A stretch of 64,000 bases of DNA, taken from contig CAWGMQ010000012.1 of assembly GCA_963823665.1 (NCBI GenBank), forward strand, positions 96,001 through 160,000, written 5' to 3'. Below are positions 4,074 through 36,343 of this stretch, in pieces. The DNA comes from an uncultured Planctomycetota bacterium. Lineage in GTDB: Bacteria; Planctomycetota; Planctomycetia; Isosphaerales; Isosphaeraceae. Both the position numbers and the translations under genes were made by a program. A model generated the notes under the pieces. It did not search any database, was not told the origin of the DNA, and saw only the letters and a list, made by a program, of their open reading frames with translations. The stretch's first letter is position 1, and the number at the start of each line of letters is the position of its first letter.

Positions 4074-4305
4074 GACTGGCTCATCCACATCGATCGTCGC
4101 CCAACCGGTCACGCACATCCATCCACCAAGAGGGACATTCTCGGCGACATCGCGAGTGATTTCAAGCATGGATCGGAGCCGATCTGCACAATCCTTGCGC
4201 CTGAGGCGATTCGCCAACTTTTTTGGCCGTCGCTGGAGACGTTTGGGGAGCTACCAGATAGGGGATGTCAGATTCTCAGGCCAATTCGACCAGGAGCCCG
4301 CAACA

Positions 4306-10300: not shown

Positions 10301-13300
10301 CCACCTACGGCATCGACATCGACGGTAAAGGGACCAGCCAGAACGTCGTGGCGAGTAGTTGGATTGGCATTGAAGCCAACGGTACCACAGCCCTCTCCAA
10401 TGGTATCGGCATCGCGGTTTTCGGCGGTTCCACGGCGAACACGATCGGCGCCACGATTGCCGGCACCGGCAACGTCATCTCGGGAAATGCCACCGTTGGT
10501 ATCGAAATCAGCGATCAAGGGACGAGCCAGAACCTCGTTGCGGGCAACTACATCGGCACAGATACCGGCGGCGAGACCGCGCGGGGCAACCAAATTGGCG
10601 TGGCGATTCAAAGCGGTTCCGCGTCGAACACGATCGGCGGAACGATCACGGGCGCCCGCAACGTGATCTCGGGCAACAGCATGGACGGCATCGACATCGA
10701 CGGTACAGGGACGAGCCAGAACGTCGTCTCGGGTAATTTCATCGGCACTGGCGTCAACGGTACCACAGCCTCGACCAATCAAACCGGCATCGCGCTTACC
10801 GGCGGTTCCACGGCGAACACGATCGGCGGATCCGCCTCGGCCGCGCGCAACATCATTTCGGGTGATGCGTTCGCGGGCGTCTGGATCGATGGCCAGGGTA
10901 CGGATAGCAACGTCGTCGCGGGAAACTGGATCGGCGTCACGGTCAGCGGCGACACTGCCCTTCCCGATGGCAAATCCTCTGAATACGAGTACTTCGGGAC
11001 GATCTCCGGCGGCGTAGTGATCGACAGCGGCGCTTCAGGCAACCGCATCGGTACCGACGGCACCAGCGAGGACTCCGGCGAGGGAAACGTCATCTCGGGC
11101 AATGCCGACGACGGCATTGACATCTGGGGGAACGGGACGAGCGGAAACCTCGTCGCAGGCAATGAGATCGGCACCAATGCGGCGGGCACCATCTCCCTCG
11201 GAAATCTGGGAGAAGGCGTCTTCCTCGTGGGAGGCGCCACTGGCAACACGATTGGCGGAACAGCGGCGGGCGCCCGCAACGTCATCTCGGGCAATGGTGA
11301 CCACGGCGTTGTGATTGGCGAAGCATCGAGCAACCTCGTCGAGGGCAATTACATCGGCACCGATGTCAAGGGTTCCAACCCTCTGGGCAACCCGATCGGG
11401 GTCTTCATTTCGAGCAACTCCATGTCGAACACCATAGGCGGTGCGGTCGCCGGCGCCGGCAACGTGATCGCCTTCAACGCGGGTGCCGGGGTCATCGTGG
11501 GGAGCAGCAGCACGGATCAGGACTCCGGGAACGCTATTCTGGGGAACTCGATCTTCTCGAACACCGATCTCGGCATCGACCTGGGCGATAACGGCGTGAC
11601 GACCAATGGTGCCAGCGGCCACACTGGGCCCAACCTGTTCCAGGACTTCCCTGTGCTCACCTCCGTGGTGACGACTGACGGCATCACGACGATCATCGGG
11701 ACGCTCTCCGCGTCGGCCAGCACGACGTACCGGGTCGAGTTCTTCAGCAACCCCGCCGCCGATCCGTCGGGATACGGACAGGGGGAGAGCTATCTGACTT
11801 TTGCCAACGTGACGACCAATTCCAGCGGCACGGTGAACTTCTCCGTCCCAACGCCCAGCCCCGTGCCGGTCGGACAGTTCATCTCCGCGACGGCCACCGA
11901 CCCGGCCGGCAACACGTCCGAGTTCTCGGCCGACATCGTCGTGAGTTCTCCATCGCTCGTTCCCACCTCCATCACAGCCGTCTCCCCCAACCCGCGGAAC
12001 ACGGCTGTTTCCAGCGTGGACGTCACGTTCAGCGAGCCGGTCAATCTGAGTTCCTTCACCACCAGCACTCTCACGCTCACCGACGACGGCGGCACCAACT
12101 TAATAACCAGCGCGGTCTCCATCAGCCTAGTCTCCGGCGCGACGTATCAGATCGGCGGCTTGAACGGCCTGACCTCCGCCGAGGGGGCTTACACGCTGAC
12201 GGTGAACGCCGCCGATATCGACGACCAGTCCGGCAACCCGGGCAGCGGTTCGCTGTCGACCTCATGGCTGATGGACACGACGCCACCGACAAGCACCGTT
12301 AATGCCCTGCCGGCGCAGACAACCTCCACGAGCTTCACCGTGTCAGCAACCAGCAGCGACCCAACCGGGTCGAACGGCAGCACACCCTCAGGCGTCGCTT
12401 CAATCGCACTCTACGACTCCAAGGACGGCGGGTCCTACACACAATTCGCCAGCGTAACACCAGCAAGTCCCTCCGCCCTCTTCACCGGCCAGGCCGGTTC
12501 TCACCTACGGCTTCTACAGCATCGCAACCGACAACGCCGGCAACGTCCAGGCCACGCCCACCGCCCCCCAGCAAACCGCGCAGATCATCTCTCCTGCATC
12601 CGTGACTTCGATTGCCGCGGTCATGCCGAACCCTCGAAACACGCCAGTCTCGACCATCGCTGTCACGTTTAGCATCCCGGTCAACCCGAGCACGTTCGGC
12701 TCGAGCACGCTCACTCTGACCGACAACGGCAACCCGGTCGCGATCACCGGCGCCGTCTCTCTTAGCCTTGTCTCGGGCAGCACGTATGACATCAACGGCC
12801 TCGCTGGGCTGACCACCGCCGAAGGAACCTACAGCCTCACCGTGAACGCGGCCAGCATTTCCGACTCCTACGGCAACCCGGGCACCGGCTCGCTGTCCAC
12901 CTCCTGGCTGATGGACACGACCCGACCGACGAGTACCGTGAGCGCACTGCCGGCGCAGACAACCTCCACGAGCTTCACCGTGTCGGCGACCAGCAGCGAC
13001 CCAACCGGGTCGAACGGCAGCACACCGTCAGGGGTCGCTTCGATCGCACTCTACGACTCCAAGGACGGCGGGTCCTACACACAATTCGCCAGCGTAACAC
13101 CAGCAAGTCCCTCCGCCCTCTTCACCGGCCAGGCCGGTCACACCTACGGCTTCTACAGCATCGCAACCGACAACGCCGGCAACGTCCAGGCCACGCCCAC
13201 CGCCCCCCAGCAAACCGCGCAGATCATCTCTCCTGCATCCGTGACTTCGATTGCCGCGGTCATGCCGAACCCTCGAAACACGCCAGTCTCGACCATCGCT

Positions 13301-15433
13301 GTCACGTTTAGCATCCCGGTCAACCCGAGCACGTTCGGCTCGAGCACGCTCACTCTGACCGACAACGGCAACCCGGTCGCGATCACCGGCGCCGTCTCTC
13401 TTAGCCTTGTCTCGGGCAGCACGTATGACATCAACGGCCTCGCTGGGCTGACCACCGCCGAAGGAACCTACAGCCTCACCGTGAACGCGGCCAGCATTTC
13501 CGACTCCTACGGCAACCCGGGCACCGGCTCGCTGTCCACCTCCTGGCTGATGGACACGACCCGACCGACGAGTACCGTGAGCGCACTGCCGGCGCAGACA
13601 ACCTCCACGAGCTTCACCGTGTCGGCGACCAGCAGCGACCCAACCGGGTCGAACGGCAGCACACCGTCAGGGGTCGCTTCGATCGCACTCTACGACTCCA
13701 AGGACGGCGGGTCCTACACACAATTCGCCAGCGTAACACCAGCAAGTCCCTCCGCCCTCTTCACCGGCCAGGCCGGTCACACCTACGGCTTCTACAGCAT
13801 CGCAACCGACAACGCCGGCAATGTCCAGGCCACGCCCACCGCCCCCCAGCAAACCGCGCAGATCATCTCTCCTGCATCCGTGACTTCGATCGCCGCGGTC
13901 TCACCCAATCCCCGGAACACGGCCGTGTCCAGCATCGACGTCACCTTCAGCATCCCGATCAATCTGAGCACATTCACCGACTCGAGCGTCAACCTCACCG
14001 ATAACGGCGGCGCGAACCTCGTCACGAACGCGGTCACCTTCGCGGCCGTCTCTGGGTCGACCTATCAAATCAACGGCCTCACCGGGCTGACCAAGAACAA
14101 CGGCAATTACACGCTGACTGTGAACGCCGCCGCGATCCTCGACACATACGGCAACCCCGGCTCGGGAACCGCGTCGACGTCGTGGCTGATGGACACAGCC
14201 CCCCCCACAAGCAAGGTCAACCCGCTCGCGGCACGCGGCACCAGCCTCACGTTCCCTGTCTCGGTCTCTGGCTCCGACGGCGGCTCACCCGCCTCAGGCG
14301 TGAGGTCCTACACGATCTACTCAAGCACCAACGGCGGAGCCTGGTCGCTCTGGACCACCGTTTCGGCCGCCAACTCAACAGCCAACTTCACCGGCCAGAG
14401 CAACACGACCTACGCCTTCTACAGCACGGCGACAGACAACGCCGGAAATACCCAGGCCTACAGCCCGCAAATTGAGGCCAGCACGTATCTGCCCGACCTG
14501 ACCCCGACCCTCACGACGGTCGACAGTACGACCGGCACCAACCCGAGCACCGTCAACACCACGACCGGTACGTTCACGCTCAATCTGACCGGCAATGATC
14601 CCGGCGGTGGTATCGTGACCTACTTCGAGGTCTACGTCTCAGTCGATTCCGGCGCCTATAGGATGGTCAACAGCGCGGCGATCCCAGCCAGCCCGCCCAA
14701 CAGCCAGGGGCTCACATCCGCGACAATCCCTTACCAGGGCCTGACCGACGGAAACAGCCATACCTACCAGTTCTACAGCATCGGCATCGACAGCGCGGGC
14801 AACGTGCAGTCGGCGCCTTCGACCCCGAACCTGAGCCTGACCGAGACCTTCGCCCAGCCCTCGGCGCTCCAGGTGACGAACCTCATCGTCGAAGACGGCG
14901 CCGTCGAGCGTTCCTACATCCGCTACCTGCAAGTCGACTTCAACGAATCCGACACCCAGTCCGGCAGCGAGCTCACCCAGATCGTCAATTCACTCAAGAC
15001 CACAGCACCCGAGATCCAGCTCTACCAGTACGACTTGAACGACGACGAATCGAGCAAGACGCCCGTCTCGCTCGCCAACGTCAACGTCTCGCTGATTGAC
15101 CACGCCATCGAGCTCGACTTCGGCGCGAACGGCCTGGGCGGCAGCCCCAACACGACAACCGCCGATGGCTACTACGAGCTCGATATCAAGCTCCCGAGCG
15201 GATCGACCGCCGTGCACCACTTCTACCGCCTGCTCGGCGACGTCACGGGAGACGGCACGGTCGACAGCAACGACCTGAACGAAATCGCCGCCGAAATCAA
15301 TCTGTCCAACCCGCCAGGCCTTGCACCCCTGGGCGCCGACGTGAACGGCGACGGCACCGTATCCGCCCTCGACCTCACCCTAGCAACCCGCGCGAAGGGC
15401 CACAAGCTGAAGTCCGGTCTTTCCCTGGGATGA
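4306..15433 (+). CDS. Giant (~3700 aa) exported protein: planctomycete export motif, HAF-like repeats, parallel beta-helix repeats, Ig/FN3-like modules, C-terminal dockerin-like domain; split by one frameshift at ~12498
   Basis: CAGGAG RBS then ATG 4306; basic N-terminus with LEILEQRELLA; DLGTLGG..S.A.AIND.GQVVG repeats; many GNxIGTD/NTIGG/NVISGN repeats; paired GDVTGDGTVDSNDL / ADVNGDGTVSALDL at the C-terminus. ORFs 3796..12672 and 12602..15433 join if GGTTCTCACCTAC (~12496) is corrected to GGTCACACCTAC as in the repeat copies. Confidence 0.88.
12308..13898 (+). repeat. Near-identical intragenic tandem repeat, period 639 bp (213 aa), ~2.5 copies
   Basis: GTGACTTCGAT recurs at 12602, 13241 and 13880; the intervening sequences are virtually identical. 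Confidence 0.95.
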
Positions 15434-21637: not shown

Positions 21638-22228
21638 ATGGCAGAGCCAGCAGCCGAGCCCGTCGGTTGGGAAAGGGCACTCATGGCAGCGGAAAAGGTC
21701 AAGGATCGCCTGCGCAGGGCAACCCGCGCGCTCGACTCGGCCGGCGTGCCTTACGCGGTGGTCGGTGGCAACGCCGTCGCCGAGTGGGTCGCCCGGGTTG
21801 ACGAGGACGCCGTCCGCAACACGCGCGATGTCGATCTCCTGATCCGGCGTCCTGACTTTGCCGCGGCAAGAACCTGTCTTGAAGCAGTCGGGTTTGTTTA
21901 TCACCAGCTCCTCGACATCGATACGTTCATCGATGGGCGGCAAGGCAAGCCGAGCGGTCGAATCCATCTCCTCTATGCCGGTGAAAAAGCTCGAAGAGAC
22001 GACGATCACAGTTTGCCCGAAATCGACGAATCGGAGCGAGCCGTCGAATTCCAGGTCGCCAATCTCGAAGCGCTCGTGCGAATGAATTTGACCTCATATC
22101 GATTAAAGGACAAACTTCACATCCTCGATTTGATCGGTGTCGGCCTGATCGATGCGACTTGGCCGGCCCGATTTCCGCCTCTGCTCGGGGATCGTTTGCA
22201 GCAATTACTCGATGATCCGAACGGCTGA
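21638..22228 (+). CDS. Nucleotidyltransferase-superfamily protein (standalone, toxin-like)
   Basis: YAVVGGNAV...RNTRDVDLL (GG + DxD) and KD motif near the C-terminus; GGGAG RBS. Confidence 0.8.
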   Translation: MAEPAAEPVGWERALMAAEKVKDRLRRATRALDSAGVPYAVVGGNAVAEWVARVDEDAVRNTRDVDLLIRRPDFAAARTCLEAVGFVYHQLLDIDTFIDGRQGKPSGRIHLLYAGEKARRDDDHSLPEIDESERAVEFQVANLEALVRMNLTSYRLKDKLHILDLIGVGLIDATWPARFPPLLGDRLQQLLDDPNG

Positions 22229-22302
22229 TCGGCGCTCCGTTCGAAATACGGACAGCGAGACGCCCAATCTCTGGATTGGAGGGAGAACTCTCGACTTCGC
22301 GA

Positions 22303-24222
22303 TTAGCCGACCGAATCCGTCGCTCTGGTGGTGACCACTTTGTTCAAACGAGCCGTCAACTTCTCGGGCACCTGAAAAAAGTGCTTGCCTTCACGATAGA
22401 TTTCGACGTCCTTCAGCCACTGAAATGTTCTTGATGAAAGCCTCCAGCAGAAAACCAATCCCGCCCCAGTCTCCAGGTCCAGTCGGACTACGTTGAAAGC
22501 CTTTTCGTAGTGCTCCGCAGCGTACAATGCGCCGGCGGAAATATGACAGTATTCGCGGCCGGCGAAAAAGGACGCCTGAACGTGCGGGTCGTGCTCGTGC
22601 CCGCGAAGAACGAAGTCAAAATACGGGAACGTCTTTCGCTGGTAACGCATGTCGTCGAGGATATACCAGTCGGTCTCTGGAGGATGATGCACGAGGGCAA
22701 GGCGGATCTGTGCCTCCTGTAATCCCTCCACTGCGTCATCAATCTGTGGGACGCCCAGAACCAGTCGCCCACGGTCCGCGTCCGAACTGGAGCGCCAAGC
22801 GGAATTGAGCCCAGCGATTCCGACGTTGACACCCTTGATTGCTTGAATCGTGATAAACGAGCCGTATCGATTGAGTAGCGGTTGTCCAAACCGTCCGCAT
22901 CGCGCCGCAAATGTCTGGAAGTTCTCCAGCCTACGAAAAACTCGCGCACGGTCGTCCTCGTAATTATGCGATTTCAGATACTCCATTGTCGCCTGATACG
23001 AGGTGAGGAACGCAAGAGCGGCAGTCTCTTCCCGTTGGTACCGTTCAACTAGCGGACGATACACGTCGTGATTGCCTGGTACCACCATGATCGGCGCATC
23101 GGGCTCGGGTAGGCACGCATGCAGTTGCTCGAGAAACATTAAAGCAATATCATATTCCTTGTCGTCACCCGAAAACGCGACATCTCCAGTCAGGAAAACG
23201 AAGTCCGGACTGAGATCCTCCTCACCGAGTAACTTGGGTAAGTCTGCGATGAACGACTCCTTCACCTTGTCTCCCGCCCAGTCGTTCTGCCGCACTTCCG
23301 AGCCGTCTGCCTTGAATTGAAGATCTGAAATGTGAAGCCACGTTAAGGTCTGGCCTGAAACACGACGGGGCGATTTTCCGGACAACGAAATCACAGCAGG
23401 TGCATTGACATTCACTTTCAAGACATTGGGCTTGCGAAGGAAGCTGTCGACCGCAACCGACGGGACCTCCGAAGCATGAAGATCCTGCTTTTGGGTCGAG
23501 ATTGAGTCCGCTGCGCTGGCCCCCGAGCTTTGAACCGTCAAGATTCCCGCCCAACGCGTCAGGGCATCGCGAAAACGGCCTAACTCTGGACGCACGTTCA
23601 ACGCCTGCAGCACGGGCAACGCGGGCGAGTCGCCGTTCGCAACCGCACGCGCCAGATCCCGGAAAAGTCCCGAACGCAAGCAAATCGTCATCGCGTCGCG
23701 GCATTCGTAAGCTCCGCCGAACAACTGTTGAGGCAACGCATCCCAGGCCTGGCGGACTGCGCGGATGGACGGCTGCTCGGCGTCCAGACGCCGCAGAAAC
23801 GGAAGGACGGACTGTCCTTGGTACTGGGCACAGTGCAAGGCTCCCGGCAGATCAGCCATCTCCGGGAGAGGCGCGGCGTAGAGTATGGCTTCCAACGAAT
23901 CGAGCGTCCGCGTCGCGGCGAGGCATTCGTCCAGCTCCTCCGCCGCTTGAGCGCGAACCTCGTCGGAGTGGCTCGGATCGAGCAATAGCAGGCTTACATC
24001 GAGCGCCTCCTCACGCCATACCGCCAGTTCCAACCGCTGCCGAACAGCCGTGGGATCGCAGTCTTCCAGGAACTCGAGATCTGCCCCTTCCCCGATCAGC
24101 AGGTGATACTCGTCGTGTCGCCGCGGAATCAGTTCATCGGGCTCGTCGACGTCCAGGGAGAAGAGTTGGTCGCCATGCACGATTAACGCCACACCGGCCC
24201 GGCCGGAAATAACCGCATTCAT
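22303..24222 (-). CDS. Unknown N-terminal helical domain fused to a calcineurin-like metallophosphoesterase
   Basis: WLHISDLQF, LTGDVAFSG, VPGNHDV, LNSAW, LVHHPP and LRGHEH motifs in the C-terminal ~350 aa; ATGA overlap with the upstream gene. Confidence 0.85.
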   Translation of the reverse strand: MNAVISGRAGVALIVHGDQLFSLDVDEPDELIPRRHDEYHLLIGEGADLEFLEDCDPTAVRQRLELAVWREEALDVSLLLLDPSHSDEVRAQAAEELDECLAATRTLDSLEAILYAAPLPEMADLPGALHCAQYQGQSVLPFLRRLDAEQPSIRAVRQAWDALPQQLFGGAYECRDAMTICLRSGLFRDLARAVANGDSPALPVLQALNVRPELGRFRDALTRWAGILTVQSSGASAADSISTQKQDLHASEVPSVAVDSFLRKPNVLKVNVNAPAVISLSGKSPRRVSGQTLTWLHISDLQFKADGSEVRQNDWAGDKVKESFIADLPKLLGEEDLSPDFVFLTGDVAFSGDDKEYDIALMFLEQLHACLPEPDAPIMVVPGNHDVYRPLVERYQREETAALAFLTSYQATMEYLKSHNYEDDRARVFRRLENFQTFAARCGRFGQPLLNRYGSFITIQAIKGVNVGIAGLNSAWRSSSDADRGRLVLGVPQIDDAVEGLQEAQIRLALVHHPPETDWYILDDMRYQRKTFPYFDFVLRGHEHDPHVQASFFAGREYCHISAGALYAAEHYEKAFNVVRLDLETGAGLVFCWRLSSRTFQWLKDVEIYREGKHFFQVPEKLTARLNKVVTTRATDSVG

Positions 24223-25073
24223 TTGCGCACCTCGAATGCGATGTCGGCCCGGCCAAGCTCAACTTCCACAGCCTGTCGAACGCTTTTCTTCGGCTGGCGC
24301 CCCTTGAGTCGAACGATTACCCGCGCGAACATGCGCAATGTCAGCGAGCCAAAGATATGGACCTCTACGAATTCGTCGGTTGCGGGCGCACCGGGCTTGA
24401 GCAGCACTTTCGGAAATTCGGCGGCCGTTGTGTCGCTTTTTAGTCGGTTCGCCAGCTTTGCCGCCGAGATTCGATGCCGATCATTCCAGGCAGCGCGATA
24501 ACCGCGAGGTAACTCCGGAGCGTCCCATATCTTGATATCGTGTTTTTTCATGAACATCACGCTGTTCTCATCGAATACCGATGCGCGGTGAGCGATCATC
24601 TCCTCCTTCATCACGACGGAACAGTTGCCATAGTTGGTCAACCCTTCTCCATCCAGTGTCAAGGCGGCAAAACGAATCTCCGATTTGACACGGTCGCCAA
24701 AAAGGGCCGTGTCGGCCAAGCTCCGTAGAACATCCCAGTTGTCGCCGGCGGGGATACGGAGTTGAGTCAACTGATAGTAGGTAGCGTACAACTCTTTGTC
24801 GCTCCTGGCCAGCCGAGCGACCTCCGCAATCGGTCGAGCAATAACGGCTTCCGATCCTTGAACGGCGGTTTCAAATTCCTCAAGAATCTGTTGTACTCCG
24901 CGAGCGATGGCGTTCTGGCGGGCGCCTTGGTACCGAATCTCAAGAGCTTGAAGTTCTTCTGGCTCTTCCGCGAGAAGCACATTCGGAAACCGCGATGGCC
25001 GCGCGCAATGGGGGCAGGCGGTCCAATCCAGCGGAACCGCAAACTGGCAATACGGGCACGGAGCGCTCTGCAT
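24219..25073 (-). CDS. Zn-ribbon protein with an uncharacterised, possibly ADP-ribosyltransferase-like domain
   Basis: CPYC-x10-CPHC N-terminus; IRFAAL...YGNCSV...R.S.F.ENS...DEFVEVHIFG. The ORF is well supported; the function is speculative. Confidence 0.7.
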   Translation of the reverse strand: MQSAPCPYCQFAVPLDWTACPHCARPSRFPNVLLAEEPEELQALEIRYQGARQNAIARGVQQILEEFETAVQGSEAVIARPIAEVARLARSDKELYATYYQLTQLRIPAGDNWDVLRSLADTALFGDRVKSEIRFAALTLDGEGLTNYGNCSVVMKEEMIAHRASVFDENSVMFMKKHDIKIWDAPELPRGYRAAWNDRHRISAAKLANRLKSDTTAAEFPKVLLKPGAPATDEFVEVHIFGSLTLRMFARVIVRLKGRQPKKSVRQAVEVELGRADIAFEVRK

Positions 25074-25361
25074 CGCACACCTATGAGGTAACCGACCGAG
25101 TAATCAGAACTGGCTAAATCTTGAAGACATATTGGTCTAACGCTGCTAACACTTTGCTGGCCCTCCCGTTGCAAGAACCGCACATCGCAAACATATTGAA
25201 CCAACATCCCGCTCACAGGGGCAATATACTTGCCAGCGCGATTGATAGCGAAAGAGGCGCAACGCGCTTGAATTCCGCGGCCTCTAGCCCCATCTTCGTG
25301 GGATGCTCTGTGGTAGACTTCTCGTGACCCCACCCCCGCTCTCACTGAGGATCGAACGCCC

Positions 25362-26399: not shown

Positions 26400-28184
26400 A
26401 GGGTGCTCTCGAAGTACGAGCGATACTCATATTCGCTCATTTGCTGCACATAAACCCTGGTGCCGTTCGGGAGCACCTCGATCGACTGCCCGGCCGGATC
26501 GCTCGCCGAGCCCGAGACCCCCGGACGTGAAGGCCAGGTTGCCGTTGGGGAGCAGCTCCGAGCTCCCGAGGAAGGCCGAGTAGTTGCCCATGTCGGCATT
26601 CACCACCAGCGTCGCCGTCATGTTCTGCTCGTTGAGGACCCATTCCTGCCCGCGGCTATCCGCCTTCGGGTTGTACGCGTGGCGGGTGTTCCCGTCATCG
26701 AAGACCAGCATGGTGTTGTCGTTGATGTAGCGCACGTCGTGCTGGTGGGAGAACCACGGGTTGGGGCGTGTTGGCGATGGCCTTGAAATTGCCGCCCGGC
26801 CCCCAGCTTCCAGACGATGTGGCCGTTGCCGGTCCCGTTGGCGTAATCGATCTTGATCACCCAGTCCTGGGCGCGCAGCGAGACGATCAGGTCCCCGTCC
26901 TCGGGCGACCAGCTCACGGAGTTGGCGTGCAGCCAGTCGGTCGGGTCCCGGTCATCCGTGCCGAGGCGGTTGGTGTTGAGCCAGTGGAAGGAGTTCCAGA
27001 CCCACGACACCTGGAAGTTCTGATTCAGGACGAGGACCATGTCGCCGTTGAACTTGGTGGGCCTCCCCTTGTAATTGACGATCTTCGGCGTGCTGGCGAT
27101 GACGACCGTGTCGCCGTTGGGCAGGAGCTTGGCCTCGTGGTCGAAGTCGAGGATCTGCGGCTGGTGCATCGCGGCCAGCTCGGCGTTGACGGCATGGATG
27201 TTCGTCTGGCGCAGGGTGTCGCCGGCCAGGTCGACCTGCCGCAACGTGTTATAGCCCGCGGCGACGCCGACGACGTTGCCGCCCAGCATCATCACCGTGC
27301 CGCCCGGCTCGAGGTTCTGGGCATAGCCGGGGAAGTTGTTGGCCACCGAGTCATAGTACCAGATGACGTTGCCGCTCAAGTCGGTCGCCACGGTGTTGAC
27401 CGCGTTCTTGGCGGTCGTCTTGTTGACCCCGGCGTGGAAGATCATGCTCTGGCTCAGGTCCGTCCCGGCGGCCGGCGGCTGCACCACGGTGAAGGTGGGG
27501 AAATTGCAGGTTGGCCGGCAGGCTCCCGGTGGTGAACGCGAGCGGGGCGGAGACCGTCCCGTCATCCAGGACGTCCCGCATGAGGTAGGTCGTGTTGGGC
27601 AGCATGCCGGCCACGATGAAGTTGGTGCTCTCGCCCGGGACGATGGGCAGCGGGGAGGTATTCTGCCAGGACAGGGTGGGGCCCTGCTCGGCGAACTGGA
27701 CGTACATCGAGGCGCCGGGCGAGGGAGGCGCGCTGTACAGGGCGACCAGGGGGTTGGCCATGGGGCTGACCACGGCGCTGTCCCCCACAACACGCGTCTG
27801 CGCCGTATACGTCGCGGTCGCGGATTCGCTCTTCCGGGCGCCGAATCCGTACTTGACGTCCACCTGGATCTCGTAGGTCCCCTGCTGCATGGGGTTCCAG
27901 GTGAAGCTGTTGCTGAGGCTGAAGTCGCTCACGACCTGGAGGGCACCGCCCTGCTGCTCGACGCTGAACTGGTAGACGGCGTTTTGCCCGTCGCCGCTGG
28001 ACGTCGCCGTCCAGATGACCGGCGATCCGACGTAGGGGACAGCCGGGGCGATGTCGGTCAGGGAGACGGACAGGAGGCAGCGATCCTCCAGTGGCGTGCA
28101 GTCGGGCCGATGCCGCCGGGGGCGACGATTCAGGGCGCGCCGGGCCGCGGCTCGCGTGCAAAATAACATGAGAGGTCGCCACAT
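26372..28184 (-). CDS. Exported aryl-sulfate sulfotransferase-like protein interrupted by four +1 frameshifts
   Basis: Export motif [47 protein letters not shown] and FDDGN motifs; extra bases in G/C runs near 27498, 26798, 26764 and 26512. Confidence 0.8.
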
Positions 28185-28690
28185 GATAAGAACTCCGGAT
28201 AGAAAATAATCGCAGCGCGAGCCCTGCCTCCGGGGCCTCAACTGCAAAGTTTTGTTAGTGCGCTGCAATCCTTGGGGGCGCACGGGGCGAGGACTGTGAC
28301 CGACTAACGCCGCGCGTCGCTGTTGCACGGCTGGGTCGGTCGCATGGGCCAGGGGGTGTGGGCGCGTGTAGCTTCGGGGCTGGTTACAGCCCACAACACC
28401 CGTCGGTGCCGATCGTCGTCTCTCCTCGCCAGTCGGGCCGATGGGTCGATCTAAGCCCGTCTATTAGAAACACACCGTGACCAGATCGCAACAAAGAAGA
28501 CAGAAAAAAGTGCGCAAAGCGCCATCCATCGCTAATCCGTACAGATTCGTGAATATATGTAAAGTGGCAAACTGCGAGCGCACACGATGAACATTGCCCG
28601 GTACGGAGACGAGCGCCGGGCTCATGGTCAATAGAATTGCATTTATGAAATTATTTGGATGTTAATAGTTTTTATATATTGAAATGACTA

Positions 28691-29099: not shown

Positions 29100-31586
29100 T
29101 CAATCCGCCCGAACCCTCGCCCCTTCTTTCTTGGCTTGCTCAAAGAATGCCGGTCCGTTGAAGATATCCTTCGGAAAATCCTCGGCCTGCAAGGTTTTGA
29201 TATTCACCCACATGTACCTGGTCCGATCCGGCTTCTTGGTCGTCGGCTTTTCCCGCTCCAGCCCGGAGGTTTCCGACTTCTCCCACAGCGAGACGTACCA
29301 CGACCCATTCGCAAGCTGCTGGAACGCCTTCGCCCGCACGTCCTGCAGATCCCATGTCTCTCGCCCGTACGTCTTTTGCCACGTGACGTGCCGCATCGCA
29401 ATCCAGTCATGGGCTGGGTCGAGCGTGTAAATCTGCGGATACGGCTCGTGACGATCGCCAACTTGAATCGTGCCATTCGTCTTGATGACGATCATTCCCG
29501 GCGGCGTTCCGGCTTCCGGGGTCAGCACCTCGAGGCCGAGTGCCCTCGACCTGGCCACGGCCCAGTGCTGCTCCACGAACGTGGGTAACCCGTCGAATCC
29601 ATGGTCCATCACGTGAACTTCGATGTCGCGCGGCCGGTCCGGCTCGACCGAAAATCGCGTGAGGTGGTACGTCATCCTTCCGTCCGCGAGGCCCACATTC
29701 ACCGACTTCTTGAACGGGAACCAAAGAGCGACGCGATCAGCGTCGAACGCGCCCGTCGGGGCATCACTGATCTTTGGAAAGAGTCCGTCGGGCCGATTGC
29801 CGTAGTCCTGATTATCAGCTTTGAAGTAGCGGGTCAGCTCGTCGTCGAGAGATCGATGCACGTCGCTCATCATGTTCTTGCAAAAGCCGTCAATGAACGC
29901 TTCCTTCACGGACCAGTATTCCAGGTGAATCTCGCCGCGGTAGCCCTTGCTCACCACGCGCAGGTCGCGCGGAAACTTGCGGATCGCCTCAACCTGTCCG
30001 GCGATCGCCTTGCGAACCTCGGGCATCTGATCGGCCCATTTGGAAGACCGCCGTGTTGCTTCGCGATCGACAATCGGCGCCTCGCGCGGCACCCCCAGCG
30101 CCGCCAGGTCGGCCGGGCCGGTCTCCGGATAGTCGTAATCAATCGTCTCGAATTCCTTGCCGTATCGATCCTGATCGGCGGCCTGATAACGCTTCTTCGA
30201 TCGCAATCGCCGCCGGGTTTCGGCGTCGTACCACACTTGCTCTTGCAACCGCATCGCGCCCAGCGCGTCGTGCTCGTAATCATCGCAGCGAATCGTCTTC
30301 TTGCCGTCGAGCGTGTCGAACGCGTACTCCGAGGCGATGACCGCCCGGAACAGCCGCAGTAACGGAGGCGTGCGCGAAGGCACCTTCCGGTTCGGATCGT
30401 CTTGAATGTCGTGGGCTGCCGGGGTGATCAATCGCCCCAATCTGTCCTTCATGTCGTGATACGGAGTCGGCTTGGATTTTTCGATCGCCCCACTTCCCCT
30501 GTAGGTCAGCCACTCTCGCGTCGAGGCATCGAGCATCGACACGGTCTTCCCCTCGCGCTTGAACTCGATCGCGGTGTCGAGATTCGCCCAGTACTCCGCG
30601 CCTCGGTCACTCTTGAGATGAACCCAGCGCACCGGAACGAGTTCGACCTTCTGCGCGGGCTCGGCTCGCGTTTTGGGAACGACCTTCGGCTCATCCTCGA
30701 CGGTATTGACCGGTACCGGGGCTGCCTTGGCCGCCGGCGGCCGGGGATCGTCCGCTCGCGTGAATGCATACGCCGCCGCCGCGGCCGAGAGCAGGCCCGC
30801 GACGAACATGACCTTCACGCCTTTCGCAAACACGCTCGCACGAGCCGCGCTCCCGGCGAGTCGAGTCGCCAGCACCGAGGCCTCGCGCGTGCCCAGCGCG
30901 ACGCGCGCGGTCTGCTCGACGAAGCCGGCCGGCAAGGCGCCTTGCGCGATCAAACCAAGAGCGCCCAGGCGCCCCAGCACCAAGGGTGGCACACCCCGGG
31001 CCGCCAGGCGATTGCGCAGCCGATCTCTCGCACCGGCGAGCCTGCGGCGGAGGGTCGCCTCGCCGCAATCAAGCACCCGGGCCGCTTCGAGCTGCGGCAT
31101 GCCTTCCAGGTCGCAAAGCACAAGCGGCCGGCGATAGCGCTCGGGCAGCCGCGCAATCGCGTCATGAAGCTCGGCGGCTTGTTGGTCGTCGTCGCTACGT
31201 GCGGGAAGTGCGGCGAGATCGATTCCGCCCTGTTCTCTCGTCCGCCGGCGCGACGCCTCGCGATTGGCCCGGATCGCCACGTGATAAGCGACGCGATAGA
31301 GCCAGCCCCCCAGCGATTCATCGACCCAGAGCGACCCCGCACGCCTCACCAGAATAAGGAACGTGGCCTGAAACGCATCTTCGACTTCGTGCGAATCGCG
31401 CAGCACATCGCGGCAGACCGAGCACACCATGGGCCCATGTCGCGCCACCAGAGCACCGAACGCGTCCTCATCACGGCTCGCGACAAATCGCCGCAAAAGC
31501 GCCGCATCCGACTGTCCCACGACCGACTGGCCGGAAAACAGCAGTTGAATCGACCGTAGTGTCTCTCCCAACCGCGTGCTCGCCAT
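29100..31586 (-). CDS. ECF sigma factor with a transmembrane segment and a long C-terminal extracytoplasmic extension
   Basis: SDAALLRRFV...AFGALVARHGPMV...VEDAFQATFLIL...LPERYRRPLVLCDLEG; hydrophobic VMFVAGLLSAAAAAYAF; ~550-aa tail. Confidence 0.9.
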   Translation of the reverse strand: MASTRLGETLRSIQLLFSGQSVVGQSDAALLRRFVASRDEDAFGALVARHGPMVCSVCRDVLRDSHEVEDAFQATFLILVRRAGSLWVDESLGGWLYRVAYHVAIRANREASRRRTREQGGIDLAALPARSDDDQQAAELHDAIARLPERYRRPLVLCDLEGMPQLEAARVLDCGEATLRRRLAGARDRLRNRLAARGVPPLVLGRLGALGLIAQGALPAGFVEQTARVALGTREASVLATRLAGSAARASVFAKGVKVMFVAGLLSAAAAAYAFTRADDPRPPAAKAAPVPVNTVEDEPKVVPKTRAEPAQKVELVPVRWVHLKSDRGAEYWANLDTAIEFKREGKTVSMLDASTREWLTYRGSGAIEKSKPTPYHDMKDRLGRLITPAAHDIQDDPNRKVPSRTPPLLRLFRAVIASEYAFDTLDGKKTIRCDDYEHDALGAMRLQEQVWYDAETRRRLRSKKRYQAADQDRYGKEFETIDYDYPETGPADLAALGVPREAPIVDREATRRSSKWADQMPEVRKAIAGQVEAIRKFPRDLRVVSKGYRGEIHLEYWSVKEAFIDGFCKNMMSDVHRSLDDELTRYFKADNQDYGNRPDGLFPKISDAPTGAFDADRVALWFPFKKSVNVGLADGRMTYHLTRFSVEPDRPRDIEVHVMDHGFDGLPTFVEQHWAVARSRALGLEVLTPEAGTPPGMIVIKTNGTIQVGDRHEPYPQIYTLDPAHDWIAMRHVTWQKTYGRETWDLQDVRAKAFQQLANGSWYVSLWEKSETSGLEREKPTTKKPDRTRYMWVNIKTLQAEDFPKDIFNGPAFFEQAKKEGARVRAD

Positions 31587-31724
31587 GGCGCTTCGGCTCC
31601 CCTGCTCTCTCGATCGATTGGTCCTGTCGACTATATCTAAGAGCGCGGGTTCCTGAGTCCGATCATCTTTTTTTTTCCGGCCCGCCGTTTCTTTTGCAAC
31701 CGCCGGCTACTCAAGGCGAAGGGA

Positions 31725-31759
31725 TTGCATTCCGTCTCAATGTGCAGTAAGATCTGCAC
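31725..31759 (+). promoter_or_regulatory. Sigma70-type promoter with overlapping palindromic operator for the BlaI/BlaR1 operon
   Basis: TTGCAT (31725)-17 bp-TAAGAT (31748); the inverted repeat GTGCAG/CTGCAC flanks the -10 box exactly. Confidence 0.7.
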
Positions 31760-31784
31760 GTAATACGAAATCAGAGAGACTGCC

Positions 31785-32186
31785 ATGCCGCGATTCACAC
31801 CGGGCGAGCTGAAGGTCATGCGACTGCTTTGGGAGCACGGCGAGCTGAAGCCGGCCGAGCTTCAGACGCGCTTCCCGGAGCCGATCAAGAACCCCGCGCT
31901 GCGGTCGTACTTGACGACCCTGGTCGAAAAGGGGCACCTCACCCGCCGCCGGGTGGGCAAGGCCTATTACTACAAGGCGGCCACCCGGTCGCGTTCCGCG
32001 TTCCGGACGATGCTCGCCGAGCTGGTCGAAGCTTATTGCGGGGGCTCGGTGTCGGCCCTGGTGATGAATCTGATCAAGTCCGAAAAGCTGAGCGAGGCCG
32101 ATCTGCTCGAGCTGAAGCGGTTAGCCGATGAAGATCGAGGCTCGCCTGCGCCGCAGCGCGAAAACGACAAAGGGGGAAAACAATGA
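31785..32186 (+). CDS. BlaI/MecI/CopY-family transcriptional repressor
   Basis: ELKVMRLLWEHG...LTTLVEKGHLTRRRVGKAYYY...LSEADLLELKRL. Confidence 0.92.
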   Translation: MPRFTPGELKVMRLLWEHGELKPAELQTRFPEPIKNPALRSYLTTLVEKGHLTRRRVGKAYYYKAATRSRSAFRTMLAELVEAYCGGSVSALVMNLIKSEKLSEADLLELKRLADEDRGSPAPQRENDKGGKQ

Positions 32187-35100
32187 GCACGCAATCGATC
32201 TTGAGCGAGCTGGCCGTCGCCCCGATCATCGTCCGCTGGACGGCGCTGCTGGCCTTCGCCTGGCTCGCACACGTCGCGCTCGCGGCTCGCAATCCCCGTT
32301 GGCGAGTCGCCCTCTGGCGTGGCGCGGTGGCCGGTGTCGCGGGCGTCGCCGTGCTGACCCTCGCGCCGCCCGTGCTGACCATCCCCGTTATTCCCGCTCC
32401 CGCTTCGGTGGTCACCCAGCCCGACGCGGTGCCTCCGGCTCCGCTGCCGATTGATGCCCGCCCCGGCCCTTCCGCGCCGATCTCCCCGCGGCAAGACTCC
32501 ACCCTCCCCTCCGTGGCGGCTCCGTCCGCGGCCGTGCGTTCCGCGGCCCCGGCGTGGCCGCTCATCCCGGCGTTGCTCGGCGTGTGGCTAATCGGGGCTG
32601 CGGTGCTCGCAGCTCGGTTGGCGCTGGCCTGGCTCGGCCTCCGCCGAATCATCGCTCGCTCCGAAGCTGCCCCGTCGCGCGTCGTCGCCCAGTGCCGCGC
32701 CGTGGCCGAGGCGATCGGTGCGCCGGCCGTGCGCGTCGTCTGCTCAGCCGAGATCGCCACGCCCTGCGTTGCCGGCCTGCGGCCTCCAGTGCTGCTGTTG
32801 CCTGCCCGTGCCCTCCTGGACGACGACTTGAGTGGTGTCTTCGCCCATGAGCTGGCGCACGCCCGCGGCCACGACCTGGCCTGGAACCTGCTTGCGCACT
32901 TCGCAACGATCGCGCTTTGGTTCCACCCGCTCGCCTGGCGGCTCCGCTCGGCTCATGCGGCAGCGTGCGACGCCGTCTGCGACGCCGTCGCCGCCGACTT
33001 CCTGGGCGATGTCTCCGCCTACTCCCGCACGCTCGCCCGCCTGGCGCTCGCGGCCCTGGGACCCTCCCCCGCGCCTGGCCTGGCGATGGCCCACTCGTCC
33101 GACATCCGCCGCCGGGTCGACGCGCTCGAGCGCAAGGTTTTTCGCTCGCCCTTGCCACGAAAGCTCGCGCTGCCTGCGGCACTGGGCGGCGGAGCGGTCT
33201 TGATCTTGATCGGCGGCCTGGCCGTCACCGGTGCCGCGCCAACTGCAAGCACCGAGCAGTCCGCTAAGCCCGCGCCGGCCGGCGACGGCCGCCTCGAGAT
33301 TCAAGCCGTCGCCGCGGCGACTGGTAAGCCGATCGAAAGCGTTTCGGTCGTCTGGCAGCTCCGCATCAACAGCGGAAGATTCACGAAGACGACCACCAGC
33401 ACCGGCCCCGACGGCCGAGCCTCGCTCGATTGGCCCAAGGACGCCACGGTCAACGGCCTTCATCTCACAGCACGCAAGTCGGGCTTCGTGCCCTACTCGA
33501 TCGACTGGGATGACAGGTCCCACCCGCTCCGCCTGCCGGCAGTGAAGGAGCTCCGGTTTGTGCCTGGCATCACGATCGGCGGCGTCGTGCGCGACGAGGC
33601 CGGCAAGCCCGTTGCCGGCGCCAAGATCTCCGCGAACGCGCCGCCCACCGAGAAGGAGTCCTCCGGCTACAGCATTCCCTTCGCCGAGACCACGACCGAT
33701 GCGCAAGGCCGCTGGCGGGTCGACGATGCCCCCGCCGATCTGGTCAGCGTGAACGTCGGCGTCGAAGCCCCCGGCTTTCTTCGCGGCGGTGGTCCGCCAT
33801 CTCGCGACTTGGGCGCGGTGATCGTGCTCAAGCGAGGCTTCACGGTGAAGGGCCGCGTGCTCGACTCCGAAGGCAAACCGCTCGCTGGCGCGAGCGTCAG
33901 CGTGGGGGGCGATTTCAGCTCCCGGTCAAACACGAAAACCGACTCGGGCGGCGACTTCGTGGTGGAGAACTGTCAGCCCGGCGCGCAGCTCGTCACGGTG
34001 CGGGCCGAGGGCTTCGCGCCCGACTTGAAGGAGATTCATCCGGAGGACAAGCCCGCCCTGCAGTTCCGCCTTGGGCCGGGGCACACGCTGCGCGGGAAGG
34101 TCGTCGACCAGCAGGGAAAGCCCGTCGCCGGCGCGACGATTGCCGCGGAAACGTGGCGGGCTCACCGGTCGCTCGACTTCCGCGTCGGCACCGGTAACGA
34201 CGGCCGCTTCGAATGGCGGAGCGCGCCCGCCGACGTCGTCCTCTACAGCCTCTGGAAGCCAGGCTTTATGTCCCGCCGCCAGGTTTCGCTCGCGCCAGAC
34301 GTCGCCGAGCAATCCCTCACGCTCAACCCGGTGCTGGTCATCTCCGGCCGCGTCACTGATGCTTCAACGGGGCGGCCGGTGCCGGAGTTCCGCGCCGTGC
34401 AGGGCCTCGTGTCCTCGAACAACCCGCGCATCAGTTGGATGGTGCAGGAAGCCGCGCAGTTCACCGGCGGGCGTTACACCATCAAGCACGACGAGCGTTA
34501 CGACGGCTACGCCGTGCGCATCGAAGCCACGGGTTACAAGCCGGCTGATTCCCGAGTCTTCAACCCCACCGAGGGCACACCGACATTCGACTTCGCGCTC
34601 GTACGCGCCGCCCCCTCCGACCTCCTGACCGGCACCGTCCTCCGCCCCGACGGCCGCCCCGCGGCCGGGGCAGAGGTCGCGCTCGCGACCCGCGACCACC
34701 CGCTCCTCTTCGACATGGAACAAGTCCGCTTCGGCCGCAGTAACGGCATGTCGTTCGCGAAAACCGGCCCGGATGGCCGTTTCACCTTCGACGCGCCCGA
34801 CGGTCCGTTCATCCTCGCCGCGATCAGCGACGATGGCTACGCCGAGTTGCACGACAAGTCCGGACACCTCACCCTGGAAGCCTGGGGCAAGGTCAAGGGC
34901 CAGGCCTTCATCGGCCGGCAACCAGCAGCCAATCAGCCGGTCAGCATCAGTCGGCGAGATTACCAGCCGCTCCCGAACGGTGTGAATGCATTCTACGGCA
35001 CGAACACGCGCACCGACGCCCAGGGCCGCTTCGTCTTCGATAGGGTGATTCCCGGCCCGAGTGAAGTCGCGCGCGTGGTCGTCACCGAGTTCGGCAACGG

Positions 35101-35539
35101 CAGCACGCAGCACATGGGATGCTGGCAGGAGCCCGTCGACGTCCAGCCCGGCGAGACGGTGGAAGTCAAGATCGGCGGCAAGGGCCGTCCGGTGGTCGGC
35201 CGCGTCGCGCTCAAGGCCGCGCCCGGCGTGATCGTCGATTGGCGGCGGAACCGCCCGGCGACGGTCCAGAGGGTGCGGGGGTTTAACCTTCTGCCAGGCG
35301 CCCGCCAGAACGACCGGTTCGCCGCGAGTCTCGACAAGGACGGCCGGTTCCGCATCGACGACGTCCCACCCGGCCACTACGAGCTGACCGTCACGATCGA
35401 CGCGCCCCCGGTGCTCGACCGCCCCGGGCCCGTCAGGGCTCTCGGCCGAGTGAGGGTCCCCGTCGACATCCCCGAAGGGGATTCCGACGCACCCGTCGAC
35501 CTCGGCGAAATCGCCGCCACGGTGGAAAAACCGCGATGA
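32183..35539 (+). CDS. BlaR1-like M56 peptidase with multiple carboxypeptidase-regulatory-like extracellular modules
   Basis: TM helices; FAHELAH zinc motif; LWFHPLAW; repeated GRVxDxxGKPVAGA...TxxDGRF; ATGA overlap with the repressor gene. Confidence 0.9.
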   Translation: MSTQSILSELAVAPIIVRWTALLAFAWLAHVALAARNPRWRVALWRGAVAGVAGVAVLTLAPPVLTIPVIPAPASVVTQPDAVPPAPLPIDARPGPSAPISPRQDSTLPSVAAPSAAVRSAAPAWPLIPALLGVWLIGAAVLAARLALAWLGLRRIIARSEAAPSRVVAQCRAVAEAIGAPAVRVVCSAEIATPCVAGLRPPVLLLPARALLDDDLSGVFAHELAHARGHDLAWNLLAHFATIALWFHPLAWRLRSAHAAACDAVCDAVAADFLGDVSAYSRTLARLALAALGPSPAPGLAMAHSSDIRRRVDALERKVFRSPLPRKLALPAALGGGAVLILIGGLAVTGAAPTASTEQSAKPAPAGDGRLEIQAVAAATGKPIESVSVVWQLRINSGRFTKTTTSTGPDGRASLDWPKDATVNGLHLTARKSGFVPYSIDWDDRSHPLRLPAVKELRFVPGITIGGVVRDEAGKPVAGAKISANAPPTEKESSGYSIPFAETTTDAQGRWRVDDAPADLVSVNVGVEAPGFLRGGGPPSRDLGAVIVLKRGFTVKGRVLDSEGKPLAGASVSVGGDFSSRSNTKTDSGGDFVVENCQPGAQLVTVRAEGFAPDLKEIHPEDKPALQFRLGPGHTLRGKVVDQQGKPVAGATIAAETWRAHRSLDFRVGTGNDGRFEWRSAPADVVLYSLWKPGFMSRRQVSLAPDVAEQSLTLNPVLVISGRVTDASTGRPVPEFRAVQGLVSSNNPRISWMVQEAAQFTGGRYTIKHDERYDGYAVRIEATGYKPADSRVFNPTEGTPTFDFALVRAAPSDLLTGTVLRPDGRPAAGAEVALATRDHPLLFDMEQVRFGRSNGMSFAKTGPDGRFTFDAPDGPFILAAISDDGYAELHDKSGHLTLEAWGKVKGQAFIGRQPAANQPVSISRRDYQPLPNGVNAFYGTNTRTDAQGRFVFDRVIPGPSEVARVVVTEFGNGSTQHMGCWQEPVDVQPGETVEVKIGGKGRPVVGRVALKAAPGVIVDWRRNRPATVQRVRGFNLLPGARQNDRFAASLDKDGRFRIDDVPPGHYELTVTIDAPPVLDRPGPVRALGRVRVPVDIPEGDSDAPVDLGEIAATVEKPR

Positions 35540-35549
35540 CCCGAACATG

Positions 35550-35722
35550 AATAGCATTGGATAATCATGCGACCAAGGTGGTTGTCACGCGCTTCGCCAG
35601 TGCTACGGTGTAGCAGGCACACTCCGTGTGCCGTCCGCCGAAGTCGCCGGTTGGTTGTCACTCGTTTTGCCAGTGTCCCGTCCCCGGGGTGAATCGCGGT
35701 CCCGTGATCGCGAAATGCCATT
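35550..35722 (+). repeat. Dispersed ~173-bp element, copy 3
   Basis: Identical 23-nt core at 35610-35632; starts AATAGCATTG like copy 1. Confidence 0.85.
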
Positions 35723-35792
35723 GATTCGCGAAAGCCCCCTGACGAGGTGCAACGCGCGCTCGTAGCAGCCAACCGGTCGGCGCGGTGCGCGG

Positions 35793-36230: not shown

Positions 36231-36343
36231 GCTATCAGGCTCCGTTTCCAATGCCGCGTTTCTCGGACGATTTCGGCAGCGCGGGTCGCTTCCGTCGTCG
36301 GGTTCTTCGGTTACACTAGACACAGTGAGAAGGAGTGTTGTTC

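Follow-up and report, generated by a model that had tools for sequence, protein, structure and literature searches.

Background

Several described systems each share some features with the cassette reported here. The effectors SopF, OspC3 and CopC are partner-activated ADP-ribosyltransferases (ARTs) or ADP-riboxanases, SopF holding the domain DUF3626; passages of the literature on them state that SopF and the OspC/CopC enzymes act only with a bound partner (ARF1 or calmodulin) and that OspC carries a repeat domain beside the enzyme (PMC9239266, PMC12560355). A passage of a further study sets out the integrated-decoy model and puts it forward for bacterial bNACHT11 (PMC11702601), and passages on effector-associated-domain (EAD) conflict systems raise decoy interactions as a possibility (Kaur et al. 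2020, PMC7159879; 2021, PMC8195603). According to excerpts on DS-8, the catalytic residues of its metallophosphatase are needed for defence (PMC13092281), and according to excerpts on PANGU, a nucleoid protein has been repurposed as a relocating sensor that controls a nucleotide-modifying toxin (10.64898/2026.04.06.716658). Here we describe a cassette of two genes in a stretch of 64,000 nucleotides (hereafter the window; positions 96,001 to 160,000 of contig CAWGMQ010000012.1) from an uncultured planctomycete of the family Isosphaeraceae. Gene 1 encodes a zinc ribbon joined to an ART-like fold, and gene 2 encodes a constant N-terminal domain (N-domain) followed by a variable C-terminal tail, which in the window is a calcineurin-like phosphoesterase. 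Comparisons across genomes and metagenomes reveal a real, obligate two-gene module of unnamed families that has repeatedly captured host genes as tails and that may act in defence.

Gene 1 resembles partner-activated ADP-ribosyltransferases

The motifs that an initial annotation had read by eye in gene 1 (C6-x2-C9-x10-C20-x2-C23, FAAL, YG, HRASVFDENS and EFVEVHIFG) were all found. A total of 456 homologues were recovered among 5,786 candidates, and 114 of the 120 listed, six short ones being dropped, were aligned with the query. In these 115 homologues the zinc-ribbon cysteines C20 and C23 are invariant and C6 and C9 are at least 90% conserved. Pfam gave weak zinc-ribbon matches only, under cut-off, and the Protein Data Bank (PDB) held no sequence match for gene 1, profile comparison adding matches at the level of the zinc ribbon only. 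The structure model is confident (predicted local distance difference test, pLDDT, 94.5) and its top Foldseek matches are SopF, CopC, DarT and OspC3. SopF is the closest (Foldseek E 1e-6, TM score 0.58; VIA Z 13.8 over 230 aligned residues, root-mean-square deviation 3.7), with CopC and OspC3 at VIA Z 9.6-10.8, Tpt1 at 10.1 and DarT at 7.3-8.9; every one of the eight VIA chains at Z>=8 has the ART fold. The ART-like fold suggested initially is therefore supported by both methods on the predicted model.

Conservation points to a putative active site, with R80, F135 and E237 at 100%, H239 at 99% and Y148 at 93%. The catalytic residues of CopC are given, in the relevant part of the source, as H137, F183 and E325 with H327, F207 being named as well (PMC9239266). 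From these we infer an R-F-E centre with E-x-H in gene 1, the equivalence with CopC H137/F183/F207/E325/H327 being drawn from strand order and spacing, without residue-level superposition. By spacing, D121 (98%) and E169 (97%) would occupy the places of CopC D172 and D230. Cassettes whose tail is not of the tetratricopeptide-repeat (TPR) type keep E237 in 24/24 and H239 in 23/24 cases, a count that is partly circular because the loci were found by patterns, one of which contains these residues. Gene 1 is thus likely an NAD-using ART, to judge from its modelled fold and conserved residues.

A resemblance to DUF3626 had also been proposed. Membership of that family was not upheld: PF12294 has no match to gene 1 at E<=1, is not among the 25 of 90 families listed for the 115 members, and found nothing when searched against the window genome. 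As to remote kinship, there is a weak profile match to one DUF3626 protein (E 5e-4, probability 31.6, 141 columns) in which the motifs align, E-A-Q standing for E-V-H, and an Atlas score of 0.86 that is taken as a lead only. By sequence, gene 1 may be a remote relative of DUF3626; it is not a member. One genome of the window's order holds a true DUF3626 gene (L208:428-1648), among whose ORFs (open reading frames) an N-domain-like partner is not evident. As to named systems, PADLOC 2.0 matched one of the 115 members marginally (LmuB, E 6e-4) and NCBIfam 20 gave no family for three members (P0001, P0042 and P0114), so that neither names gene 1.

The N-domain is an obligate and predicted binding partner

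The first part of gene 2 had been described as an unrecognised helical domain of ~230 residues. It has 235 residues and is indeed unrecognised, no single Pfam family matching more than 2 of 117 members; it is not purely helical, the model (pLDDT 96.4) placing five beta-strands in residues 1-52 and helices after them. Against PDB structures the best values were Z 5.7 and Foldseek E 0.17, and the Atlas offered no usable match; a new fold is not shown, because residues 1-110 were barely tested. The alignment has no invariant column, which together with the lack of a family match suggests that the N-domain is probably not an enzyme. Its family comprises 1,710 clusters at 50% identity.

The two genes are inseparable. 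Among 156 loci (76 from genomes and the best 80 of 226 from metagenomes), the N-domain directly follows gene 1 in 147, the remaining nine contigs stopping within 137 bp, and in 138 of these 147 it starts no more than 13 nucleotides from the gene 1 stop. Reverse searches gave the same result: gene 1 lies directly upstream of all 13 N-domain matches in 151 genomes of the class of genome G012 (a few of which repeat earlier loci) and of both clear non-self matches in 401 genomes of the window's phylum. The expected co-occurrence is thereby borne out. A third match in that phylum (G301, E 7e-4) was rejected as spurious, being an unrelated protein with no gene 1 adjoining. Single proteins fusing ART and N-domain were absent from 7,999 candidates of 546-2,000 residues, which is weak evidence.

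Binding between gene 1 and the N-domain is predicted, the modelled complex scoring 0.81 against 0.46 for the best control; the mark applied to this score is reached by 116/157 solved complexes and 2/215 mismatched pairs, and is rough for the alignments used here. Runs had at least 80% of contacts in common, with partner pLDDT of at least 86. The contacts predicted on gene 1 (residues 79-120, 135, 145, 148 and 258-271) include R80, F135 and Y148; E237 and H239 are not listed. No like complex is known, because the N-domain has no solved structural match. Predicted interface residues of the N-domain are better conserved than the remainder (0.57 vs 0.46, p 0.001), and after filtering of gappy columns 11 of the top 100 covarying pairs fall in the predicted interface against 3.8 expected, a weak signal. 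The mirror-tree correlation of 0.82 between gene 1 and the N-domain is not used as proof, because shared history alone yields it. N-domain residue 8 (Arg in 59 and Gln in 36 of 133) was considered as an acceptor and dropped, as it shows no covariation with active-site columns.

Tails are exchanged repeatedly

Tails of the TPR type are the commonest. At 75 genome loci there are 48 TPR-type tails, 18 with another recognisable domain, 7 short or unrecognised, 1 frameshifted and 1 cut by the contig end (72 were Pfam-scanned; L020, L025 and L070 are weak or by-similarity calls, and two TPR cases, L046 and L071, are split into two ORFs). Complete TPR tails span 173-789 residues (54 tails). One natural cassette of the TPR type is that of Aureimonas fodinaquatilis CAU 1482 (L058). 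The top 150 representatives, in which clustering inflates rare tails, comprise 44 TPR-type, 26 short and 80 other tails, and Pfam names 45 of these 80, among them sigma70 (12), CHAT (5) and sigma54 activators (4), together with receivers, TIR, kinase, FHA, MarR, bactofilin, phasin, RecA and TIR-STAND. Across the data set, replacements of the TPR tail include sigma factors, RecA, Hsp70, phasin, NtrC, CHAT, TIR and ribosomal protein S2. The initial annotation had proposed a constant adaptor carrying swappable effectors; the constant N-domain and the swappable C-terminal domains were confirmed, and most swapped tails proved to be copies of ordinary host proteins, not toxic effectors.

A tree of 66 rows, built in quick mode, rooted at the midpoint and excluding 10 partial or broken loci, implies at least 9 changes between TPR and other tails and at least 19 among all tail states. 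In Pyrinomonadaceae the tail has been swapped in place with flanking genes unchanged. Among close relatives of the window's cassette (68-71% over the N-domain), the tail is variously a sigma factor, a receiver, the same phosphoesterase or a small protein of unknown kind. The joins are in frame: 18 of 25 non-TPR tails are recognisable domains, where random joins were assumed to give a share of ~0.15 (binomial p 2e-10, the rows being non-independent). Tails are also layered, as at L149, where a sigma factor precedes an anti-sigma-kinase remnant common to L025 and P0177. L040 and L045 have a downstream gene in common and may represent one capture.

Two side observations concern the N-domain and its junction. 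A V-A-E linker motif, often with Tyr 4-6 residues on, stands just past the N-domain in many non-TPR tails and may mark the capture junction (L030, L040, L045, L050, L054, L076, P0164, P0187, P0202, P0208 and P0224). Four members of one lineage (L093, L094, P0219 and P0227) have a partial duplication inside the N-domain and yet differ in their tails, which are TPR-like or sigma.

Most tested tails derive from host genes and remain under purifying selection

The arrangement of an integrated decoy, a variable domain derived from a host gene with the native copy still present, was found for 9 of 11 tested tails, whose native genes lie elsewhere in the same genome at 57-95% identity: ornithine monooxygenase (95%), Hsp70 (83%), three sigma factors (77%, 75% and 57%), two phasins (73% and 73%), DUF1571 (70%) and a sugar transferase (58%). 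The CHAT tail of L028 (36%) and the window's phosphoesterase (33%) lack such a counterpart. The own-genome gene is mostly closer to the tail than the copies of other genomes, with Hsp70 and the sugar transferase about tied. The two phasin tails are each 73% identical to their own host gene and 42% to each other. Among further tails, the one in P0123 matches a stand-alone gene in the window genome at 80%; that of P0125 has no match there at E<=1e-25. The youngest capture (L076) has 94% DNA identity to its donor from about codon 11, with no upstream sequence included.

Captured tails evolve under purifying selection. Pairwise tail/native ratios of nonsynonymous to synonymous change (dN/dS) were 0.06-0.40 in all eight pairs computed, values that are rough because dS is near saturation under simple counting. 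Tails of 100-500 codons remain open at dS >1 and dN/dS 0.06-0.16, though truncation is tolerated. The Hsp70 tail is the most detailed example: its 518 codons are open (branch dS ~1.3, dN ~0.087) and in the tree it groups within the native orthologues, with a branch length of 0.18 vs 0.002-0.09. It is altered at 47 of 401 positions that are invariant in 12 natives (0-5 in eleven of the natives, 23 in the most distant one), and its GC content at third codon positions (GC3) has drifted to 0.63 vs 0.76-0.86 in natives. This pattern suggests constraint after capture, looser than that on the native gene. RecA tails either miss the start of the Pfam model or are degenerate.

A finished plasmid of a cultured isolate, pRL9b4 of Rhizobium leguminosarum bv. 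trifolii 9B (NZ_CP050098.1, L247:8974-11350), carries gene 1, with E-V-Q in place of E-V-H, followed by a 510-residue ORF joining the N-domain to S2, which argues against assembly artefacts. The fusion is annotated only as rpsB, a warning for annotation in general. A GNAT/DUF1778 pair lies 2.5 kb upstream of this cassette. An S2 copy on an Allorhizobium plasmid was rejected as an N-domain fusion, being stand-alone; this second, unannotated S2 with a long tail (L248:3947-4903, NC_011991.1) adjoins a large TPR gene, a VapBC pair and an integrase. By eye, neither a recombinase nor a reverse transcriptase recurs among the neighbour clusters.

The cassette in the window and its distribution

The features of the cassette are listed in Table 1. 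The ATGA coupling noted initially is present, as is the lower GC content (0.569 for the segment vs 0.627 for the window), which places the segment among the lowest 0.5% of 3-kb stretches. GC3 of the cassette is 0.62-0.71 vs 0.75-0.85 in five neighbouring genes; the adjacent nucleotidyltransferase is likewise low (0.65). This nucleotidyltransferase-like gene (NTP_transf_5, under cut-off; 21638-22228, plus strand) is kept in the same-genus genome G447, and a cognate partner for it was not seen. It flanks the segment on one side and a YdjC gene on the other; in G447 only 36 bp separate the nucleotidyltransferase from the YdjC upstream region, which implies an insertion in the window genome or a loss in G447. 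No target-site duplication was seen, and no promoter, terminator or repeat signal above chance. Each gene is single-copy in the window genome. Export signals were absent by eye from both genes (no predictor was used), and, as had been noted, scans with Pfam, PADLOC and NCBIfam found no nucleoside triphosphatase (NTPase) in either. A public soil contig, which may come from the source sample, is identical over 23906-24330; the phosphoesterase motif I site lies outside it.

Table 1. Features of the two-gene cassette, in window positions.
Feature	Position	Strand	Basis
Low-GC segment of 3,012 bp holding the cassette; missing from the equivalent site of same-genus genome G447	22251..25262	.	
Gene 1, 284 residues; zinc ribbon and SopF/OspC-like ADP-ribosyltransferase fold	24219..25073	-	structure model, Foldseek, VIA
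CxxC-x10-CxxC zinc ribbon of gene 1 (C6, C9, C20, C23)	25005..25058	-	conservation in 115 homologues
Putative NAD-binding/catalytic residues of gene 1 (R80, F135, Y148, E237, H239)	24357..24836	-	conservation in 115 homologues
Gene 2, 639 residues; constant N-domain, linker and metallophosphoesterase tail	22303..24222	-	ORF list, Pfam
Residues 1-235 of gene 2, the constant N-domain; beta+alpha fold without a name, predicted to bind gene 1	23518..24222	-	model, complex prediction
Calcineurin-like phosphoesterase (DS-8/PDC-S60 type) with Gln (Q302) in place of the motif I His	22585..23337	-	Pfam PF00149; P0126 alignment

The phosphoesterase recognised initially in gene 2 is a clear Pfam match (PF00149 Metallophos at 296-546, E 5e-12, 47 bits vs a cut-off of 21.5). 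The metal motifs of calcineurin-like phosphoesterases are DxH, GD, GNH, H and GHxH. In the window motif I reads D-L-Q and the four others are present, so that the copy lacks the full set of five; motif I is D-V-H in the nearest relative, P0126, and D-L-H in two relatives from the window's own genome. The tail partially matches PDC-S60 (E 2e-26) and DS8_antiphage (107 bits vs a cut-off of 790, over ~280 of 1,000 model positions). Beyond the window and P0126, no phosphoesterase tail is listed for 72 locus tails or 80 representatives. In the window, the phosphoesterase may serve as an effector or as a bait that draws an anti-defence protein. The window genome also holds two conflict-type phosphoesterases in other settings, one fused to what by eye is a SIR2-like domain (L160, G000:C4) and one fused to TPRs and adjoining genes that by eye look BREX-type (L161, G000:C10).

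The module is patchily distributed, occurring in 3/401 genomes of the window's phylum and 13/151 of the class of G012. It is found in Acidobacteriota, Planctomycetota, Myxococcota, Verrucomicrobiota and Alphaproteobacteria, with the tree largely grouped by class. It was absent from viral contigs (searched by protein and alignment) and from 50,697 phage records, and present on 1 of 72,556 plasmids. No third gene is conserved across phyla among 975 neighbour ORFs.

Elsewhere in the window, two ORFs of 2,958 and 943 residues (3796-15433, plus strand) look as though a frameshift had broken up a single giant secreted repeat protein; 639 bp are duplicated internally, with identical antisense ORFs at 12514-12816 and 13153-13455. 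By eye, positions 26427-28394 (minus strand) hold an arylsulfotransferase-like coding sequence in several frames, partly duplicated and either frameshifted or mis-assembled, and positions 29100-36323 hold a HigA-like helix-turn-helix gene, a BlaI/BlaR-like pair that has carboxypeptidase-regulatory-like repeats, and an extracytoplasmic-function (ECF) sigma factor that continues into a long C-terminus of unknown kind.

Evolutionary and functional scenarios

We favour, with a probability of roughly one half, the reading that the two genes form an immune receptor pair with integrated host decoys, in which disturbance of the tail switches on ADP-ribosylation. The N-domain would hold the gene 1 enzyme in a complex, on the side of its NAD cleft, keeping it off or primed, and the tail of gene 2 would be the sensing end. 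The TPR array, most widespread and variable in length, may bind an invader protein directly; in many lineages this array has given way to a copy of a host protein with a working fold (sigma factor, RecA, Hsp70, S2, phasin, NtrC or response regulator) or of a host conflict domain (TIR, CHAT or, as in the window, a phosphoesterase). An invader protein that targets the genuine host protein would engage the copy, and the signal would pass through the N-domain and trigger ADP-ribosylation of a host target, leading to growth arrest, or of the captured invader protein itself. Since SopF/OspC enzymes are activated by a partner, and OspC has a repeat domain, the N-domain can be seen as a built-in controlling partner and the tail as a sensor. 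The captured copies are diverse, convergently acquired and constrained in fold yet relaxed, features that the bait reading explains best. The strict pairing, the predicted binding, the turnover of tails, the patchy distribution and the low-GC insertion that carries the window's copy also speak for it.

Several findings weigh against this reading. Its support is computational throughout, and one control of the complex prediction itself scored 0.46. For the window's own tail, the best match in its genome has the low identity given above, and 120 further genomes from the order yielded no close donor at E<=1e-30; the L040 tail is nearer to another genome's sigma factor (64%) than to its own (57%). 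The dN/dS ratios are rough, as stated, and short tails are tolerated, the 26 short representatives having fewer than 40 residues (some are probably contig-cut). Cores with non-TPR tails often have longer branches than their TPR sisters (e.g., 0.33-0.46 vs 0.10-0.15), which could mean decay, and a piece of a non-ribosomal peptide synthetase (NRPS), the ornithine monooxygenase and the sugar transferase are no obvious phage targets. Enrichment near defence genes, which the initial annotation expected, is not evident: 12 of 184 neighbours, dereplicated from 248 chosen by a simple longest-ORF rule, match PADLOC (E<=1e-8, without a background control), and these matches are mostly generic (kinases, NtrC, radical SAM and TPR). 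Finally, in Blastocatellia the cassette follows prfA-like housekeeping genes at 29 loci (named by eye) of one clade, a fixed position that counts against a typical mobile defence system of fast-moving genes.

A more ambitious version holds that this is an adaptive-style decoy receptor, whose fixed core of ART and adaptor repeatedly copies host genes, new captures being laid over old. Taken across genomes, the tails would then record which host proteins phages attack, and the core would be where the SopF/OspC type of enzyme has its free-living, ancestral setting; we put this forward tentatively, judging it somewhat more apt to be wrong than right.

An unlikely alternative is that the tail is a tether or address label that anchors the complex to some structure of the host (the RNA polymerase, the ribosome, a RecA filament, a polyhydroxyalkanoate granule or the cytoskeleton), where the enzyme would modify the machine for dormancy or be freed on damage, as in PANGU. 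Many tails do belong to large assemblies or bind them (sigma70 accounts for 12 of the 80 non-TPR representatives and sigma54 activators for 4, with bactofilin, RecA, phasin and S2 besides), their folds are kept under purifying selection, and fixed chromosomal loci would suit a housekeeping stress role. However, a single enzyme with a single conserved active site would need to serve unrelated targets, and the TPR form is not a host mimic. The RecA tail begins at model position 28 and so lacks the part that drives polymerisation. The tether idea does have a parallel in PANGU's relocating nucleoid-protein sensor, as presented in excerpts of its description (10.64898/2026.04.06.716658).

It is less likely again that the cassette is a selfish toxin-antitoxin pair in slow decay, the N-domain being the antitoxin and the tails passengers, or stability or expression tags gained after loss of the TPR. 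Strict coupling, predicted binding over the NAD cleft, the absence of a conserved third gene across phyla, split TPR genes (L046 and L071), short tails, deletions and mosaics in tails, and longer core branches after a tail swap are all consistent with it. Passengers would not be expected to yield in-frame recognisable domains at the observed 18 of 25, nor to stay open over 100-500 codons at dS >1 with such low dN/dS where truncation is tolerated.

Least probable among the alternatives is the proposal that sensing or modification falls to gene 1 and output to the tail, the phosphoesterase removing ADP-ribose or degrading a nucleotide signal: the window tail is similar to the metallophosphatase of DS-8, which depends on its catalytic residues for defence according to excerpts of its description (PMC13092281), P0126 has the same fusion with D-x-H intact, and TIR, CHAT (5/80), TIR-STAND and kinase tails are plausible effectors, but the window copy has lost the motif I His, S2, phasin, Hsp70 and bactofilin are no effectors, and phosphoesterase tails, confined to the window and P0126, are too rare for the modifier/eraser mechanism suggested initially to be general.

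Integrated decoys are central in plant immunity, and for bacteria we found them only as a hypothesis for one sensor. In the present module the copying of genes is visible in sequence and recurs across phyla, with essential proteins included (RecA, sigma factors and S2). If the tails are baits, they would list host proteins attacked by the phages of poorly studied soil bacteria, and the cultured Rhizobium strain makes the idea testable. Even without a role in defence, there remain a large unnamed family pair, a domain without a solved structural match, a repeated capture of genes and, for the SopF/OspC enzymes with their activating partners, a likely context in bacteria.

Comparison with known systems

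Searches of full-text literature, at the level of titles and starts of abstracts and with subscription journals mostly outside their scope, gave no description of the gene 1/N-domain pair; DUF3626 turned up in two papers. The pair was not met in passages of PMC7159879, PMC8195603, PMC9503650 and PMC6682159, of which the first three have supplements that could hold it, and keyword passages of the EAD papers (PMC7159879, PMC8195603) contain no ART-centred two-gene system.

Gene 1 is like SopF and OspC3/CopC in fold and in its E-x-H, which corresponds to CopC E325/H327. It differs in being encoded with its own partner, in its zinc ribbon, in having Arg and not His as the first residue of the triad, in its low identity (9-14%), and in occurring in soil and aquatic bacteria with no secretion context seen. 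DarTG and other ART toxin-antitoxin pairs share the ART fold, the coupled operon and the predicted tight complex, and type II toxin-antitoxin systems in general share the coupled pair and predicted complex; unlike DarTG, the module has a variable tail, its constant part is free of macrodomains and other erasers, and no column of the partner is invariant. The window's tail is of the same phosphoesterase type as the DS-8/PDC-S60 metallophosphatase-NACHT proteins, which it matches over part of their length, without a NACHT. In PANGU, as far as the available passages describe it, the sensor type is constant and effectors vary, whereas in this module the enzyme is constant and the host-derived part varies.

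EAD conflict systems, from Planctomycetes and lineages like them, also join variable C-terminal domains to a core that stays constant, but the present module is without a MoxR-vWA, GTPase or peptidase core and has one N-domain per searched genome. There is an analogy in organisation with paired plant nucleotide-binding leucine-rich-repeat receptors (NLRs) of the RRS1/RPS4 type, linked pairs with a variable host-protein copy built into one of the two; here there is neither NLR nor NTPase, and the output would be an ART. Finally, mimicry in bNACHT11 is, in the passages available, a hypothesis about a sensor surface, whereas in this module whole host genes have visibly been copied in.

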